Part shown: positions 27,153 through 30,931 of the stretch, in pieces
How the letters are laid out: the number at the start of each line of letters is the position of its first letter
Numbering within the stretch: the stretch's first letter is position 1
NCBI GenBank assembly: GCA_041494705.1
Contig: JBGQBI010000004.1
Coordinates: 120,001-152,000, forward strand
DNA length: 32,000 bases
Direction: 5' to 3'
From: Candidatus Methanoperedens sp.
Lineage (GTDB): Archaea > Halobacteriota > Methanosarcinia > Methanosarcinales > Methanoperedenaceae
Notes under the pieces: model-generated
Database searches by the model: none
What the model was told of the DNA's origin: nothing
What the model saw: the letters and a program-made list of their open reading frames with translations, nothing else
Made by a program: the position numbers and the translations under genes

Positions 27153-28754
27153 ATGAGCGCACGTCTGCTTTCAGGAAAAAAAATAATGAAAAAAATAATT
27201 TTATTTTTTTTAATATTCATATTATTGGTTAATAACGCTTCAGCCTATACATTTACCAATATCGGAAGAGATTTTAAGATAGAATACCCGTCAGGCTGGA
27301 CTTATACCGAAGAACCTGACGGTTCTGACCAGACTTTTACCAGCCAGACCGGGCATGCATGGGTAAGAGTTGCTGTTGTGCCTTCCGATGGGATGATTCT
27401 TGATGATATAGTAGGTGAGAGAATAAGGTATCTCAACAGTTTGGGCATTTACCCCTTCAGTGAAAAATACGTAACAATCAACGGCGTGACTGACAAAGTC
27501 AAAGAATTGATGTTTTACGAAAATTATCAACAGAAAGAATATAAAGAAAGACAGATTCTCACGCTCTCCGGGAATAAATATTATATTATTACGGCAGGAA
27601 CGGCAACAAGTGATTATCCGTTTTATTCAGAGGACCTTGACCGGATTATCAATTCATTTAATGTCATACAACCTTCTATAGCCACCACAACCACAGGGGC
27701 AATTTCTACACCACCGCCAGCTACACCAACACCAGAGGAAACAGACGAGATATTGTCCTCAGACGTTGCAAGCATCGCTCTTCACAGGGAGAAAACCAAG
27801 GTGGATGTTGGAGAGGAGGTTCTATTAAAACTGTCAATAGTCAATTATATTTCAAATCCGTCGCCGATGGAAGTTCAGCTAATTCTGGCACCTCCTTCTG
27901 GAATGTCAATTACTTCAACGGAATTTACCCAGAGCACTACCGGGCAATCTACTTCAAATTACACGCTTAACCCCGGTCAAAACAGAGATATTGAAATAAG
28001 TTTAAAAGCCAATGAAATAGGCAATTTTAATGTGGAAGGAAGGGTGGTATATTATTTCGGGGAAAATAAAACATCTGCTGTGATAAAAACATTTAAAAAG
28101 CCTATAACGGTAAAATCTGCGGGAGTGATACCCGTAGGGACGACTACCAAACCGCCAGAACCATCCGATGGCTCATCTATAATTGTTGGTATTATAGCCA
28201 TCATTGCGATCATTTTTACTGTTTATGTAATTTTTAATAAGATAGCTAAAGCATTTAAAAATAAATTAACAAAAGGTAAAGCCCCAACAGAAGCCGAAGT
28301 TCATGCGGCAGAGGCCGAAATTCCGCAGCCTTCGGGTATTGGGGAAGAGCCGGCAAGAATTGAGCCAAAGATAAAAAAAGAATCGGCGTTTGAAGCTGAA
28401 AAAAGAAAACAGCATAGTATTTTGCCGCCGGAAGATCTTGATATCGACACAAGGAATTACCTGGGTTCAGGGGTCAATACCGCCATCTCAACGCTTGGTG
28501 CTGAGATAGCAAACGCTGAAAATGATGCGTTGGAGATGCAGGGTGCAATAAAGAAAGACGAGGATGTCCTTGGCAAGCTCGGAACCAGGCTTGTAAATAA
28601 AGAGATTTCAGACCAGACTTATAATGATTTGAAAAATAAGTATATGAGAAAGATTTCCGAATTGAAAAGCAAATCCGCGGCTCTTGAAAGCAATGCAGCA
28701 AAACTGAAAAAAATCCGTTCTTTCATCCATGAAAAAGGAAAATACTATACGTAG
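27153..28754 (+). CDS. Type I membrane protein: signal peptide, PsbP/DcrB-like domain, Thr/Pro linker, beta-sandwich domain, TM helix, cytoplasmic coiled-coil tail with SHOCT-like motif
   Basis: Signal peptide h-region KKIILFFLIFILLVNNASA. FKIEYPSGWTYTEEPDG...NKYYIITAGTA...IINSFNV resembles the PsbP/DcrB fold pattern. The linker is TTTTGAISTPPPATPTPEE. The beta domain has NPSPMEVQLILAPPSGMSI...PGQNRDIEISLKA...ITVKSA. The TM helix is IIVGIIAIIAIIFTVYVIF. The tail contains LGKLGTRLVNKEISDQTYNDLKNKY. An alternative start is ATG 27186. Confidence 0.7.
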   Translation: MSARLLSGKKIMKKIILFFLIFILLVNNASAYTFTNIGRDFKIEYPSGWTYTEEPDGSDQTFTSQTGHAWVRVAVVPSDGMILDDIVGERIRYLNSLGIYPFSEKYVTINGVTDKVKELMFYENYQQKEYKERQILTLSGNKYYIITAGTATSDYPFYSEDLDRIINSFNVIQPSIATTTTGAISTPPPATPTPEETDEILSSDVASIALHREKTKVDVGEEVLLKLSIVNYISNPSPMEVQLILAPPSGMSITSTEFTQSTTGQSTSNYTLNPGQNRDIEISLKANEIGNFNVEGRVVYYFGENKTSAVIKTFKKPITVKSAGVIPVGTTTKPPEPSDGSSIIVGIIAIIAIIFTVYVIFNKIAKAFKNKLTKGKAPTEAEVHAAEAEIPQPSGIGEEPARIEPKIKKESAFEAEKRKQHSILPPEDLDIDTRNYLGSGVNTAISTLGAEIANAENDALEMQGAIKKDEDVLGKLGTRLVNKEISDQTYNDLKNKYMRKISELKSKSAALESNAAKLKKIRSFIHEKGKYYT

Positions 28755-28869: not shown

Positions 28870-30180
28870 ATGAACAATAAACTAAATGTTATCTTAATTG
28901 TTTTTTTTATTTTCCTCGTTAACACGGCGCAAGCCCAGGCTATCGAGCATAATTATGTATCTCTTACAGTAACACCGGGAGAGGAAATCAGCAGGACGAC
29001 CAGTTTTACAGGTGCATACAAGCCCTTATTTGCCGCGGTTGATGCTTCCGGCAGTGCCTCATTGTGGGTCATACCAAGACACATAGATTTCGGTCCAATC
29101 AATCCCGGAGATAAAATTGTAAAGGATTATACAATAAGTGTTCCCTCGAATCAAAGACCCGGATACTATGAGTTGATATGGGAATTTAGCTGCAGATATA
29201 CGGATGGAACCACCTGTACAGTCACAAGCGATACGGTGCTTCAAATTACAGTGCAGGCTGCACCTACGCCAACAACCGCAAATAAATATACATCTCTTAC
29301 CTTAACACCGGGAGAAGAGCAAAGTGAATATCTGGAATTCAGCGCACCTTACGACAGCATGTACGCCTGGTCGGATGCTTCCGGCGAGGCAGCATCATGG
29401 GTAACGCCAACACATGTAGATTTCGGTATAATCGATAAGGGGACATCCAATAAGCGGTACTATACAATAAAAGTCCCGGATAATCAATATCCTGGATACT
29501 ATGAGATAATCTGGAAATCGGGCTGCAAATACGTTTCGGGGAAAACTTGCTCGGTTACAGGTGAAACTGTGATTCAAATTACCGTAGAGGCAAAACCCAT
29601 GCCAACATTCACGAGTTACATACCCCGATATACGCCAACGCCGGAAAGTTCAACTGCCCCCATCATTGTCGGATTTATTTTTATATTGGTATTATTTATT
29701 ATCTGGATATCCATTGTATCCTGGGTTGCCGGGGATGCTAATAAACGGGGAACAAGCGGAACCCTGTGGGGAATTTTAACGTTTTTCCTGGGTTTACTTG
29801 GCTTGCTGATATATCTTATAGCCCGGCCAAAAGGAAATCTTGTTTTATGTGGTTATTGCGGGAAAGAAAAATTAGAAAAATTAACCCGATGTCCCCATTG
29901 CAAGAATGCCACAACGCCTGCTCCCGGGCCAGCGCCGGTGAGACCCGGACCGATTTCGTACCCTGCTATTCCCCAAAAACCCGAAGTGGCTGTTGACGAA
30001 TTAAAAGGGCTAAAAGAAAAGCTCAGTAAAATCAATGCACTTCTTGATAAACTGGATGAGATGCTTGCGCAGGGTGAGATAACCGAAACTAAATATAAGG
30101 AGTTGGCTGGAAAATACAGAGCCGAGGCTGATAGTCTTAAGAACCGGATAGCAGAAAAAGAGCTTCTGGATGAGGAGTGA
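28870..30180 (+). CDS. Membrane protein: signal peptide, two tandem Cys-pair beta domains, PLDc_N-like two-helix membrane hairpin, zinc ribbon, Pro-rich linker, C-terminal SHOCT-like helix
   Basis: Signal peptide MNNKLNVILIVFFIFLVNTAQA. Repeats span aa 28-137 and 138-247. WISIVSWVAGDANKRGTSGTLWGILTFFLGLLGLLIYLIARP is like the small PLDc_N membrane domain as I recall it. The ribbon is CGYCGKEKLEKLTRCPHC. The helix is LDKLDEMLAQGEITETKYKELAGKYRAEADSLKN. With two helices the topology of the C-terminal part is ambiguous. Confidence 0.7.
   Translation: MNNKLNVILIVFFIFLVNTAQAQAIEHNYVSLTVTPGEEISRTTSFTGAYKPLFAAVDASGSASLWVIPRHIDFGPINPGDKIVKDYTISVPSNQRPGYYELIWEFSCRYTDGTTCTVTSDTVLQITVQAAPTPTTANKYTSLTLTPGEEQSEYLEFSAPYDSMYAWSDASGEAASWVTPTHVDFGIIDKGTSNKRYYTIKVPDNQYPGYYEIIWKSGCKYVSGKTCSVTGETVIQITVEAKPMPTFTSYIPRYTPTPESSTAPIIVGFIFILVLFIIWISIVSWVAGDANKRGTSGTLWGILTFFLGLLGLLIYLIARPKGNLVLCGYCGKEKLEKLTRCPHCKNATTPAPGPAPVRPGPISYPAIPQKPEVAVDELKGLKEKLSKINALLDKLDEMLAQGEITETKYKELAGKYRAEADSLKNRIAEKELLDEE
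28951..29610 (+). repeat. Internal tandem duplication of a ~110-aa domain (2 x 330 nt)
   Basis: Units 28951-29280 and 29281-29610. My hand alignment shows about half of the residues identical (SLT.TPGEE, DASG, W..P.H.DFG, Y.I.VP.NQ.PGYYE.IW, C.Y..G..C.VT..TV.QITV). Confidence 0.8.
29998..30168 (+). repeat. Copy 1 of the 171-nt SHOCT-like module (C-terminus of the 28870-30180 protein)
   Basis: Aligns without gaps to 30245-30415. I count 139/171 identical nt and 48/57 identical aa. Confidence 0.85.
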
Positions 30181-30238
30181 AGGAAGCAATAGCCGCACAA
30201 AAGAGTAAGTGACAAAACCAAAAACCAGGCGAGACTCC

Positions 30239-30880
30239 ATGAACGAACTAAAAGAACTTAAGGAGAGGTGCAGTAAAATCAACTCGCTCCTTGACAAACT
30301 GGATGAAAGGCTTGCGCAGGGCGAGCTTAGCGAGGCTAAATATAAAGAGTTAGCTGGAAAATACAGAGCAGAGGCGGATAGTCTTAAGAATCAGATAGCT
30401 GAGAAAGAGCTTTTGCAGGATGTCGGACTTAAAACCGAGGAGAGGGAAGAACCAATAGCCGAATATCCGGAAAAAGAGCCTGAAAAGCCGGTTTTTAAAG
30501 AGGGCGCAAAATATTGTTCTAATTGCGGAGCTTTGATAGATGAAAGGGCAGAGATTTGTCCTAAATGCGGTGTAAGAGTTTCAGAGCCTCCCATCAGCAG
30601 AATTTCAATAATACCAGAGAAAAAAAATGTTGCTCTTGCAGTCGTGCTGAGCTTTTTTATTCCGGGATTGGGGCAAATGTATTGTGGTAAAGCGGCAAGA
30701 GGTGTGGGAATTTTAGTGCTTAGCATTCTGATGTTTTTGATTTTCGGATTTGCCGCAAGTTCGGCAGGCGCAGCATCTTCAGCACCAGCCTTTCCCTTTT
30801 TATTGTGGATTCTGGTTTACATATGGAACATTTATGATGCATATAAACTCGCTGGAAAAATAAATCGTGGAGAAGCTTAA
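30239..30880 (+). CDS. Membrane protein: N-terminal SHOCT-like helix, acidic/Pro linker, zinc ribbon, C-terminal PGLGQMYCG-type (TM2-like) membrane domain
   Basis: MNELKELKERCSKINSLLDKLDERLAQGELSEAKYKELAGKYRAEADSLKNQIAEKELL is followed by CSNCGALIDERAEICPKCG and then VVLSFFIPGLGQMYCGKAARGVGILVL...WNIYDAYKLA. The tracked GTG 30209 is an alternative start. Confidence 0.7.
   Translation: MNELKELKERCSKINSLLDKLDERLAQGELSEAKYKELAGKYRAEADSLKNQIAEKELLQDVGLKTEEREEPIAEYPEKEPEKPVFKEGAKYCSNCGALIDERAEICPKCGVRVSEPPISRISIIPEKKNVALAVVLSFFIPGLGQMYCGKAARGVGILVLSILMFLIFGFAASSAGAASSAPAFPFLLWILVYIWNIYDAYKLAGKINRGEA
30245..30415 (+). repeat. Copy 2 of the 171-nt SHOCT-like module (N-terminus of the 30239-30880 protein)
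   Basis: See copy 1. The offset is 247 nt, so the copies are in different reading frames of the window but each is in frame in its own gene. Confidence 0.85.
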
Positions 30881-30931
30881 TCAGGGCTTATTTGCAGCGT
30901 TGTGAATCCTGAACAAAATCCGTACCGTGAA

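Follow-up and report, generated by a model that had tools for sequence, protein, structure and literature searches.

SHOCT domains and their SHOCT-like relatives occur widely among bacteria and archaea, and to our knowledge no function has been demonstrated for domains of this type since their description in 2013. Candidatus Methanoperedens, the source of the DNA analysed here, is a methane-oxidising archaeon of interest for anaerobic methane oxidation. The closest described relatives of the sequence module treated in this study are the SHOCT domain (PF09851; PMC3581485) and the SHOCT-like bihelical domains (PMC11237479), in which two amphipathic helices are joined at a conserved glycine, followed by Glu-Ile/Leu-Thr/Ser-x-x-x-Tyr/Phe, in a unit free of indels. 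They are placed terminally in promiscuous fusions, and the 2013 paper named PLDc_N hairpins, zinc ribbons and TM2 domains among the fusion partners and listed about 80 small PLDc_N plus SHOCT membrane proteins, none longer than 173 aa (PMC3581485). The membrane-proximal assembly proposed for SHOCT-like domains is purely computational (PMC11237479). The module of the present locus shares the helix-Gly-helix build, the motif after the glycine, the absence of indels, the terminal and promiscuous fusion to the same partner domains and the putative cytoplasmic, membrane-proximal placement; function is unproven in both. It differs from SHOCT in length (about 60 vs about 28 residues), in heptad-patterned extensions on both sides and a conserved (E/D)VGL tail, and in a score of 18-20 bits against a Pfam cut-off of 27. 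Its full-length form was found only in part of one archaeal genus, and it is paired on adjacent genes with a very high peptide conservation.

The window, i.e., the whole stretch of 32,000 nt that was analysed, contains a conserved cluster of three genes, U, A and B (Table 1). A repeat search revealed a direct repeat of 178 nt across the A/B boundary (29996-30173 vs 30243-30420, 81% identical, spacing 247). The first-pass annotation had aligned 171 nt of it, corresponding to the two module copies in Table 1, with 139 identical nucleotides; a recount yielded 140/171, while the 48/57 identical amino acids and the 27 differing codons, 18 of them synonymous only and 9 non-synonymous, were reproduced. 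Each copy is read in the frame of its own gene, the offset of 247 nt shifting the frame by one. Compared without gaps to all other positions of the window, the A copy had on average 43.2 identities (sd 6.0, next-best 69/171), which places the B copy 16 sd over the background, and a whole-genome protein search with the A module retrieved the B copy at E 9e-25. The repeat had also been regarded as a substrate for recombination that would fuse or delete the junction. This was not borne out: the longest identical run between the copies is 17 nt, hence the repeat is unlike a working recombination substrate, and fused or deleted forms of A and B were found neither in 19 genomes of the genus nor among 51 protein-library matches. 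The A gene of genome G017 is split into frames of 368 and 78 aa, which is not a fusion.

Table 1. Features of the U-A-B cluster in window coordinates
Feature	Position	Strand	Description
Gene U	27153..28754	+	Signal peptide, PsbP-like ectodomain, one transmembrane helix, cytoplasmic helical tail (predicted)
Diverged module copy in U tail	28548..28685	+	Weak match to the A module of this genome (E 0.17, E 0.08)
Gene A	28870..30180	+	436 aa; ORF; AlphaFold mean pLDDT 69
Two tandem beta-sandwich (Ig-like) domains of A, ~111 aa each	28945..29586	+	333-nt internal duplication
Two hydrophobic helices of A, PLDc_N-like hairpin	29659..29820	+	Residues 264-317; hydropathy, model helices H264-293 and H296-317
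Zinc ribbon of A (CGYC...CPHC)	29839..29907	+	Four Cys invariant in 7 orthologues
Module copy A	29998-30168	+	Residues 377-433 of A; putative extended SHOCT-like helical hairpin
A-B spacer	30181..30238	+	58 nt, no run of T; partly conserved in L060-L064
Gene B	30239..30880	+	213 aa from conserved ATG; ORF; AlphaFold mean pLDDT 72
Module copy B	30245-30415	+	Residues 3-59 of B; conserved tail QDVGLK runs on to 30433
Zinc ribbon of B (CSNC...CPKC)	30509..30577	+	Pfam Zn_ribbon_3, 31.9 bits vs cut-off 27, E 8e-8
Membrane domain of B, TM2/DUF6677-like	30620..30865	+	Three to four helices; Pfam sub-threshold, model

Several lines of evidence point to the module as a variant of the SHOCT domain and not, as initially read, an anonymous coiled coil. 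Pfam SHOCT matched the A module with 18.5 bits (E 1.7e-3) and the B module with 20.4 bits (E 4.4e-4), both under the gathering threshold of 27 bits and limited to profile positions 3-18, and the 15 residues matched are identical in position for both copies. A profile built from the two copies and searched against 1.84 billion proteins gave only 51 matches, the weak ones (E 4e-6 to 8e-4) being Pfam-certified SHOCT proteins of 41-92 bits. An hhalign comparison of the module alignment with 14 canonical SHOCT units reached a probability of 97.4% (E 1e-11) over module residues 15-40, a match that is favoured because these units were taken from the matches of the module's own profile. In the AlphaFold models both copies consist of a helix, a five-residue loop at Q-G-E-I/L-T/S and a second helix (A: H374-400 and H406-435, pLDDT 84-87; B: H2-26 and H32-63, pLDDT 80-88). 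Residue G26 is invariant and E27 is conserved at 90% or more in 21 aligned modules. An alignment of the 46 full copies, which come from 19 genomes, has no indels over 57 residues. With two helices of roughly 25 and 30 residues, the conserved unit reaches a length of 57-63 residues compared to about 28-30 in SHOCT, and we therefore call it an extended variant. Hydrophobic residues follow each other in a continuous 3-4 spacing through helix 1 (positions 2, 5, 9, 12, 16, 19, 23) and helix 2 (33, 36, 40, 44, 47, 51). The heptad a/d pattern expected of a coiled coil was therefore confirmed, the single long helix was not, as AlphaFold predicts an intramolecular two-helix hairpin. Sequence and models thus describe the module as an extended SHOCT-like bihelical hairpin, in which heptad-patterned extensions flank a SHOCT-like core.

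Other helical families resemble the module to a lesser degree. The SHOCT-related GvpG (PF05120) and DUF1707 (PF08044) gave weak matches on the same Gly-turn core, e.g., GvpG to the A module with E 0.02, and were found in 11 and 4 of the 51 library matches; the scores stay far under the cut-offs, and the locus has no gas-vesicle gene context. Foldseek aligned the module locally to 60-residue helical hairpins with rmsd 1-2 A. Among them were the antiparallel hairpins of the ESCRT-I headpiece (6vme), the coiled-coil domain of a serine integrase (5uae) and ribosomal protein L29, several of which bundle with partner hairpins; target-normalised TM-scores were 0.74-0.84 and E-values at least 3, which indicates likeness of shape only, not kinship or function. 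The B model had no PDB match with E below 3, the best match by sequence to a solved structure had E 0.03, and no relative of the module was found in viral contigs.

The proteins carrying the module are composites without an NCBIfam family for U, A or B. Protein A (orthologues in genomes of the genus 57-87% identical) begins with a signal peptide and two beta-sandwich domains; two hydrophobic helices and a CxxC...CxxC zinc ribbon come next, and a Pro-rich linker leads to the C-terminal module. Its ectodomain repeats (D2-D5, spacing 333, 71-84% identity) are modelled as strands E26-E128 and E139-E239 with pLDDT 80-90, and their Foldseek matches were Ig-like/ASH/RbmA folds (E 1e-11 to 1e-7). The zinc ribbon has weak Pfam matches and is modelled as low-confidence beta hairpins. 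The hydrophobic hairpin matched PLDc_N (PF13396) with 13.8 bits (E 0.057), below the cut-off of 23.3. Relatives match over the full profile 1-41 (P0018 25.7, P0002 22.2, P0005 20.2 bits), and P0018, 126 aa, passes the cut-off and consists of a PLDc_N hairpin and a SHOCT-like module alone. With its PLDc_N-like two-helix hairpin ahead of the SHOCT-like module, the C-terminal half of A resembles the small PLDc_N plus SHOCT proteins, from which A differs in its signal peptide, ectodomains, zinc ribbon and sub-cut-off hairpin.

Protein B (orthologues 47-92% identical) has the module at its N-terminus; an acidic linker connects it to a zinc ribbon, and a TM2-like membrane domain forms the C-terminal part. 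This domain matched TM2 (PF05154) with 18.6 bits (E 2e-3, cut-off 27.9) and DUF6677 with 20.4 bits (cut-off 24.3), and its modelled helices are H131-140, H144-148, H152-175 and H184-209. The B orthologue of G009, G020 and L066 has no zinc ribbon. A start at GTG 30209 was rejected for ATG 30239, as the frames of three orthologues open only two codons before that ATG; the module therefore occupies codons 3-59, as the first-pass annotation had placed it. The A-B arrangement suggests co-transcription. Gene U, the first of the cluster, lies upstream of A also in G010, G015, G001 and L060-L066. Its product has hydrophobic segments at residues 5-35 and 336-368 and matches Pfam PsbP_2 at E 2e-7; at the position of the diverged module copy, U orthologues match the module profile with E 8e-7 to 6e-6.

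The full module was present in 19/49 genomes of the genus, all of one Candidatus Methanoperedens sublineage, and a sample of 400 genomes across the phylum gave weak matches to the SHOCT-like core only, none to the full module. All orthologues of A and B that were found carry the module. Of the 19 genomes with the module, 18 contain both A and B, which lie side by side in 16; in G001 and G005 they lie on different contigs. Homologues with zinc ribbon and TM2 domain in Methanoperedens genomes without A have no module. The strong library matches show the module at a terminus in eight or more architectures. It precedes TM2, multi-TM, single-pass and soluble domains and follows PLDc_N with zinc ribbon, PsbP with TM, and HNH. 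Its partners include PLDc_N, zinc ribbon, TM2, PsbP, HNH and pilin-like N-termini, and it is also found on unlinked genes of unrelated architecture. The mirrored domain order noticed for A and B holds in this genome, it does not extend to a general rule: B orthologues of two clades have an additional domain of ~85-105 aa ahead of the module, and, as noted, the zinc ribbon is missing from B of G009 and G020.

The peptide is under purifying selection in both genes. Between the A and B copies, the Nei-Gojobori method gave dN 0.092, dS 1.18 and an omega of 0.078 (codon bootstrap 0.02-0.22, Fisher p 4e-10). Among orthologues, omega of the B module was 0.015-0.18 compared to 0.2-0.4 in the remainder of the gene, and of the A module 0.23-0.45. 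The conservation proposed from codon counts hence agreed with the formal dN/dS estimate, omega being 0.08 between the copies and below 0.5 among the orthologues of both. A consistent depression of synonymous sites in the module was not observed, as dS relative to the rest of the gene was lower in A and higher in B. With a dS of about 1.2, the duplication is old. The module is charge-neutral (12 K/R vs 12-13 D/E), and the exposed charged residues K18, D20, E21, E27, E30, E43, K48 and E53 are conserved at 90% or more; these may form a conserved binding surface.

Three accounts dispense with selection for a shared peptide or with the exchange of DNA between the genes. The module is rich in K, E and L like many helical linkers, and a recent functionless duplication in drift, or a chance likeness of low-complexity charged helices, would be one explanation; the distance from the window background, the omega of 0.08 and the gapless conservation in 46 copies leave it practically no credibility, and we consider it refuted. 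Ongoing gene conversion might instead keep the copies alike, since they lie on the same strand only 247 nt apart and the trees described below suggest one past replacement. Conversion would homogenise the synonymous sites too, yet two thirds of the differing codons (18/27) are synonymous only, dS is about 1.2, identical runs end at 17 nt, and B modules orthologous within the clade likewise show omega 0.015-0.18. The conversion account is disfavoured, and we rate it as very improbable. The third account competes with the main reading, a replacement of the B module at the DNA level. A and B modules share 84% of their amino acids here vs 54-72% in other clades, and the B modules of the window's clade are 74-84% identical to A modules of that clade, 47-67% to B modules elsewhere. 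In free maximum likelihood trees of all sites, amino acids or third positions they nest among the A modules of the clade, with 99/99 support in the set of 22 rows. We take it as somewhat probable from these comparisons that the B module was overwritten by an A-type copy in an ancestor of the clade, via gene conversion or module replacement. Selection would then have held both copies, while synonymous sites ran to near saturation. Upstream of the two modules, stretches of 70 nt had no similarity above shuffled controls in seven genomes, thus copied DNA would be confined to the module. The alternative is convergence or co-evolution of interacting hairpins at the protein level. It would account for these dissimilar flanks and for a synonymous divergence between A and B of the window (pS 0.60) that is not below that between the window A and A of other clades (pS 0.30-0.60), combined with a non-synonymous divergence of 0.074 vs 0.13-0.18. 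Furthermore, AU tests did not reject a tree with all A apart from all B (p 0.099 for nucleotides, 0.073 for amino acids, 0.217 for third positions). With B and C held together, p was 0.022 for 30 rows and 0.167 for 46 rows; B alone held together was rejected (p 0.002), in part a reflection of C modules nesting in B. The fair comparisons are A against B and B with C, of which neither was significant overall. Against convergence, third codon positions alone also nest the B modules among the A modules of the clade, at synonymous sites the window B differs less from the A genes of its own clade (pS 0.54-0.60) than from those of other clades (0.62-0.81), and about ten convergent positions would require strong selection for matching. 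We therefore regard convergence as quite unlikely.

For the role of the module, we propose that the hairpin serves as a portable tag on the cytoplasmic end of several membrane proteins in one Candidatus Methanoperedens sublineage. Proteins with an outside domain (A, and U with a diverged copy) would have it at the C-terminus and those whose membrane or outside part comes after it (B, C and others) at the N-terminus, and the mirrored order of A and B would arise because the tag sits at the cytoplasmic end of each. Beneath the membrane, the hairpins of co-encoded proteins would pack together as a helical bundle and unite A and B with U, and with C where it occurs, in a single envelope complex. 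This assembly is a tentative proposal, with the chances somewhat against it; the explanation as a whole, i.e., a portable SHOCT-like tag, a replaced module in B and docking, seems to us slightly better than an even bet. A stricter form, in which the hairpins are heterotypic docking tags, their sequence decides which envelope proteins assemble, and the replacement re-matched the partners, we judge unlikely. It counts against the proposal that A and B modules of other clades are only 54-72% identical, so that like-with-like matching is not required. Topology bears on the proposal as well. In single-pass relatives with a signal peptide the module follows the TM helix, and N-terminal copies such as that of B have no signal peptide; the copies in B and in the single-pass relatives are therefore predicted to be cytoplasmic. 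The tail of A is ambiguous: if the signal peptide and both hydrophobic helices are taken as simple topology with the helices spanning the membrane, it lies outside the cell, away from the cytoplasmic N-terminus of B, and only its K/R-rich start (6 of the first 25 residues) argues for the cytoplasm.

The modules may also not bind each other at all. Each would hold its own protein at the inner membrane face or bind one and the same third component, for instance a surface of lipid head groups or a hub protein in the cytoplasm, so that A and B stayed alike through the shared partner. In the prediction of Ravi et al. 2024 (PMC11237479), SHOCT-like domains tether a variety of other domains to the inner leaflet, the one published test of a canonical SHOCT domain for self-association, by size-exclusion chromatography, was negative (PMC3581485), the module occurs on unlinked genes with unrelated architectures, and the conserved charged surface suits a common partner as well as self-binding. 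On the other side, a charge-neutral module is atypical for a lipid-binding amphipathic segment, the TM2-type protein has the module only where A is also present, mostly adjoining, and no candidate hub protein was identified. On balance the non-binding alternative appears rather unlikely.

The proposed docking of A and B has consequences beyond this locus, which represents a compact natural test case: adjacent, co-inherited membrane proteins with near-identical long hairpins under strong purifying selection, of which one may have had its module altered to fit that of its partner. Should no binding occur between the 62-residue peptides, A and B are an ordinary case of a promiscuous domain common to neighbouring genes. 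If the peptides do bind, SHOCT-type hairpins gain a concrete role as assembly tags, pointing to an undescribed envelope complex in Methanoperedens, and heterotypic docking tags would make this the first natural system revealing what SHOCT-type domains do.

A repeat search of the window revealed a direct repeat of 81 % identity (29996-30173 and 30243-30420, spacing 247) at the end of gene A and the start of gene B. By direct count over the 171 nt of the two copies, 140 nucleotides and 48 of the 57 amino acids were identical, and 18 of the 27 differing codons differed only synonymously. Copy A shared a mean of 43 identical positions of 171 (sd 6) with all other positions in the window, and the next-best position reached 69. 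The start codon of gene B is the ATG at 30239; three orthologues have an open frame that extends no more than two codons ahead of it. Thus, the first-pass annotation, which had described a module duplicated across the gene boundary, was accurate almost to the letter.

Coordinates of the genes, module copies and related features
Feature	Locus	Position	Strand	Length
Gene U, ahead of A	window	27153-28754	+	
Gene A	window	28870-30180	+	436 aa
Tandem duplication in A	window	28949-29607		333 nt
Module copy A	window	29998-30168	+	171 nt
Gene B	window	30239-30880	+	213 aa
Module copy B	window	30245-30415	+	171 nt
B orthologue with extra N-terminal domain	L048	3249-4187		
B orthologue with extra N-terminal domain	L046	516-1451		
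B orthologue with extra N-terminal domain	L050	7635-8372		
B orthologue with extra N-terminal domain	L081			
Gene C, between B and thrS	L044	6118-6921		
Gene C, between B and thrS	L045	5975-6766		
Split A orthologue (G017:C2)	L053	5729-7040		368 + 78 aa

Both copies matched the Pfam domain SHOCT (PF09851) below threshold in an identical stretch of ~15 residues (18.5 and 20.4 bits, cut-off 27). Known fusion partners of SHOCT include PLDc_N hairpins, zinc ribbons and TM2 domains (PMC3581485). A profile built from the two copies and searched against 1.84 billion representative proteins yielded 51 matches in all at E up to 1e-3, 27 of them at E up to 1e-10. The strong matches carried the full module, N- or C-terminal, on many architectures, and the weak ones were proteins passing Pfam SHOCT at 41-92 bits. 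An hhalign comparison of 21 modules with 14 canonical SHOCT units, taken from the module's own matches, aligned module residues 15-40 with a probability of 97.4 %. AlphaFold predicted for both copies a helix, a five-residue loop at Q-G-E-I/L-T/S and a second helix (pLDDT 80-88; H2-26 and H32-63 in B, H374-400 and H406-435 in A). Foldseek found no significant relative of the modelled hairpin; local matches were 60-residue antiparallel hairpins with an rmsd of 1-2 Å. Hydrophobic residues recur at a spacing of 3-4 in both helices, and the module ends in a conserved (E/D)VGL. By the domain and profile matches, the modelled hairpin and the residue spacing, the module is a SHOCT-like core, extended on both sides into a predicted coiled-coil hairpin. 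The A protein of the window ends in LLDEE* (30160-30192), while six orthologues end in LLDEVGLKK* or similar, and compared to L060 an AGTG stands in place of 18 nt (TTGGACTTAAAAAATAGT); thus this A has lost the conserved VGL tail.

The full module was present in 19 of the 49 genus genomes with 2-5 copies per genome. Among 400 genomes sampled across the phylum only weak core matches were obtained and the full module was not found, and none of the viral contigs carried it. Eighteen of the 19 module genomes had both A and B, adjacent in 16, and the module was C-terminal in every A orthologue and near the N-terminus in every B orthologue. The mirrored domain order proposed in the first-pass annotation applies to the A and B of the window, but the B orthologues of G001, G005, G009, G020 and G048 possess an additional domain of ~85-105 residues (MVKVAKKIGMHTLEADYSQL...) ahead of the module, and those of G009 and G020 are devoid of the zinc ribbon. 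Fused or deleted forms of the two genes, expected from recombination at the repeat, were not found in the 19 module genomes and the 51 library matches. In genomes without A, homologues of the zinc-ribbon and TM2 core of B are devoid of a module. In three Methanoperedens genomes with neither A nor module (G014, G003, G004), stand-alone zinc-ribbon and TM2 proteins of 106-125 aa (L015, L018, L019) were 38-44 % identical to B residues 90-209 and encoded in other neighbourhoods than that of B. The gene order PGF-CTERM protein, U, A, B, C in some genomes, and thrS is common to the window, G010 and G015; the tail of U includes a diverged module copy. Gene C, a module fused to a soluble domain of ~170 residues, was observed between B and thrS in G010, G015 and G059. 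It is absent from the window, where only 51 nt (30881-30931) lie in its place.

A and B modules shared 70-84 % identity in the clade of the window versus 54-72 % in other clades, and the B module of the window was only 47-67 % identical to B modules of other clades. In maximum-likelihood trees of 30 and 46 modules, the B and C modules of the window's clade nested within its A modules, with a support of 99/99 in a 22-row set. For 36 A and B rows, trees from all sites, amino acids and third positions only gave this nesting alike; the AU test of a clean A/B split yielded p values of 0.099 (all sites), 0.073 (amino acids) and 0.217 (third positions). From identities and trees, the best reading, though not proven, is that an A-type module replaced that of B on the stem of the window's clade. 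Such a replacement cannot be recent, because dS between the copies is ~1.2 (0.16-0.49 among orthologous genes of the clade), the copies share no identical stretch longer than 17 nt, and no similarity was found between the upstream flanks of the two modules. Purifying selection on the peptide, suspected from the codon differences, was borne out by formal dN/dS: ω was 0.078 between the copies (Nei-Gojobori; bootstrap 0.02-0.22, dN 0.092, dS 1.18) and, among orthologues, 0.015-0.18 for the B module, 0.23-0.45 for the A module and 0.2-0.4 for the rest of both genes. Since the probable replacement, selection has preserved the peptide.

A shared binding function of the modules is likely, because exposed charged residues are conserved, A and B strictly co-occur and adjoin, B-core homologues lack the module where A is missing, and the module of B was possibly rewritten to the A type. 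The module may be placed on whichever protein end is cytoplasmic, so the mirrored order would need no special symmetry. A later computational study assigned to SHOCT-like domains a proposed role in protein assembly on the inner membrane face (PMC11237479). For the simplest version, we infer that the hairpins of co-encoded proteins might bundle together, as in the docking suggested by the first-pass annotation. Against this step stand the negative SEC result on self-association of a canonical SHOCT domain (PMC3581485), the fact that A and B modules are less alike in other clades, and conflicting topology signals in A. The main rival is that each module copy binds the membrane or one common third partner. 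The signal peptide of A and its two hydrophobic helices of 25 and 21 residues, with the loop GDANKRGTSG, would by simple counting leave the zinc ribbon and the module tail outside the cell (topology conflict at 29659-29907). The K/R-rich tail (6 of the first 25 residues) and single-pass relatives argue for a location inside.

The SHOCT-like family and neighbouring genes sharing such hairpins have already been described (Ravi et al. 2024, PMC11237479), and no paper linking SHOCT and Methanoperedens was found. New are the extended 60-residue form, restricted to some members of one genus, the tail-to-head placement on adjacent genes and the quantified selection; the A-to-B replacement is a further, suggested novelty. 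The locus is chiefly of value as a clean system for experiments on SHOCT function.

Some six-fold and three-fold codons of the module (9, 12, 16, 22, 23 and 36; 30022-30105 in copy A) are nearly fixed in 30 copies: L23 is CTT in 28/28, L16 CTT in 28/29, L9 CTC in 21/23 and L36 TTA in 23/30, with CTC and TTA contributing only 13-16 % of all leucine codons in the genome. Sites of two-fold degeneracy are close to equilibrium, and dS across the module is not consistently low. In two genomes, A and B/C paralogues are located on separate contigs (G001:C1 and G001:C52; G005:C312 and G005:C503). The gene next after A in G001 is unrelated to B, and on G001:C52 two B-type genes flank a broken module fragment of 54 aa. 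The split of the A orthologue in G017, a genome 66 % complete, stems from either a frameshift or faulty assembly. The tandem duplication in A, with pieces 71-84 % identical, encodes both of its beta-sandwich ectodomains; a conserved Cys pair is present in each, and their Foldseek matches were generic Ig-like/ASH/RbmA folds.
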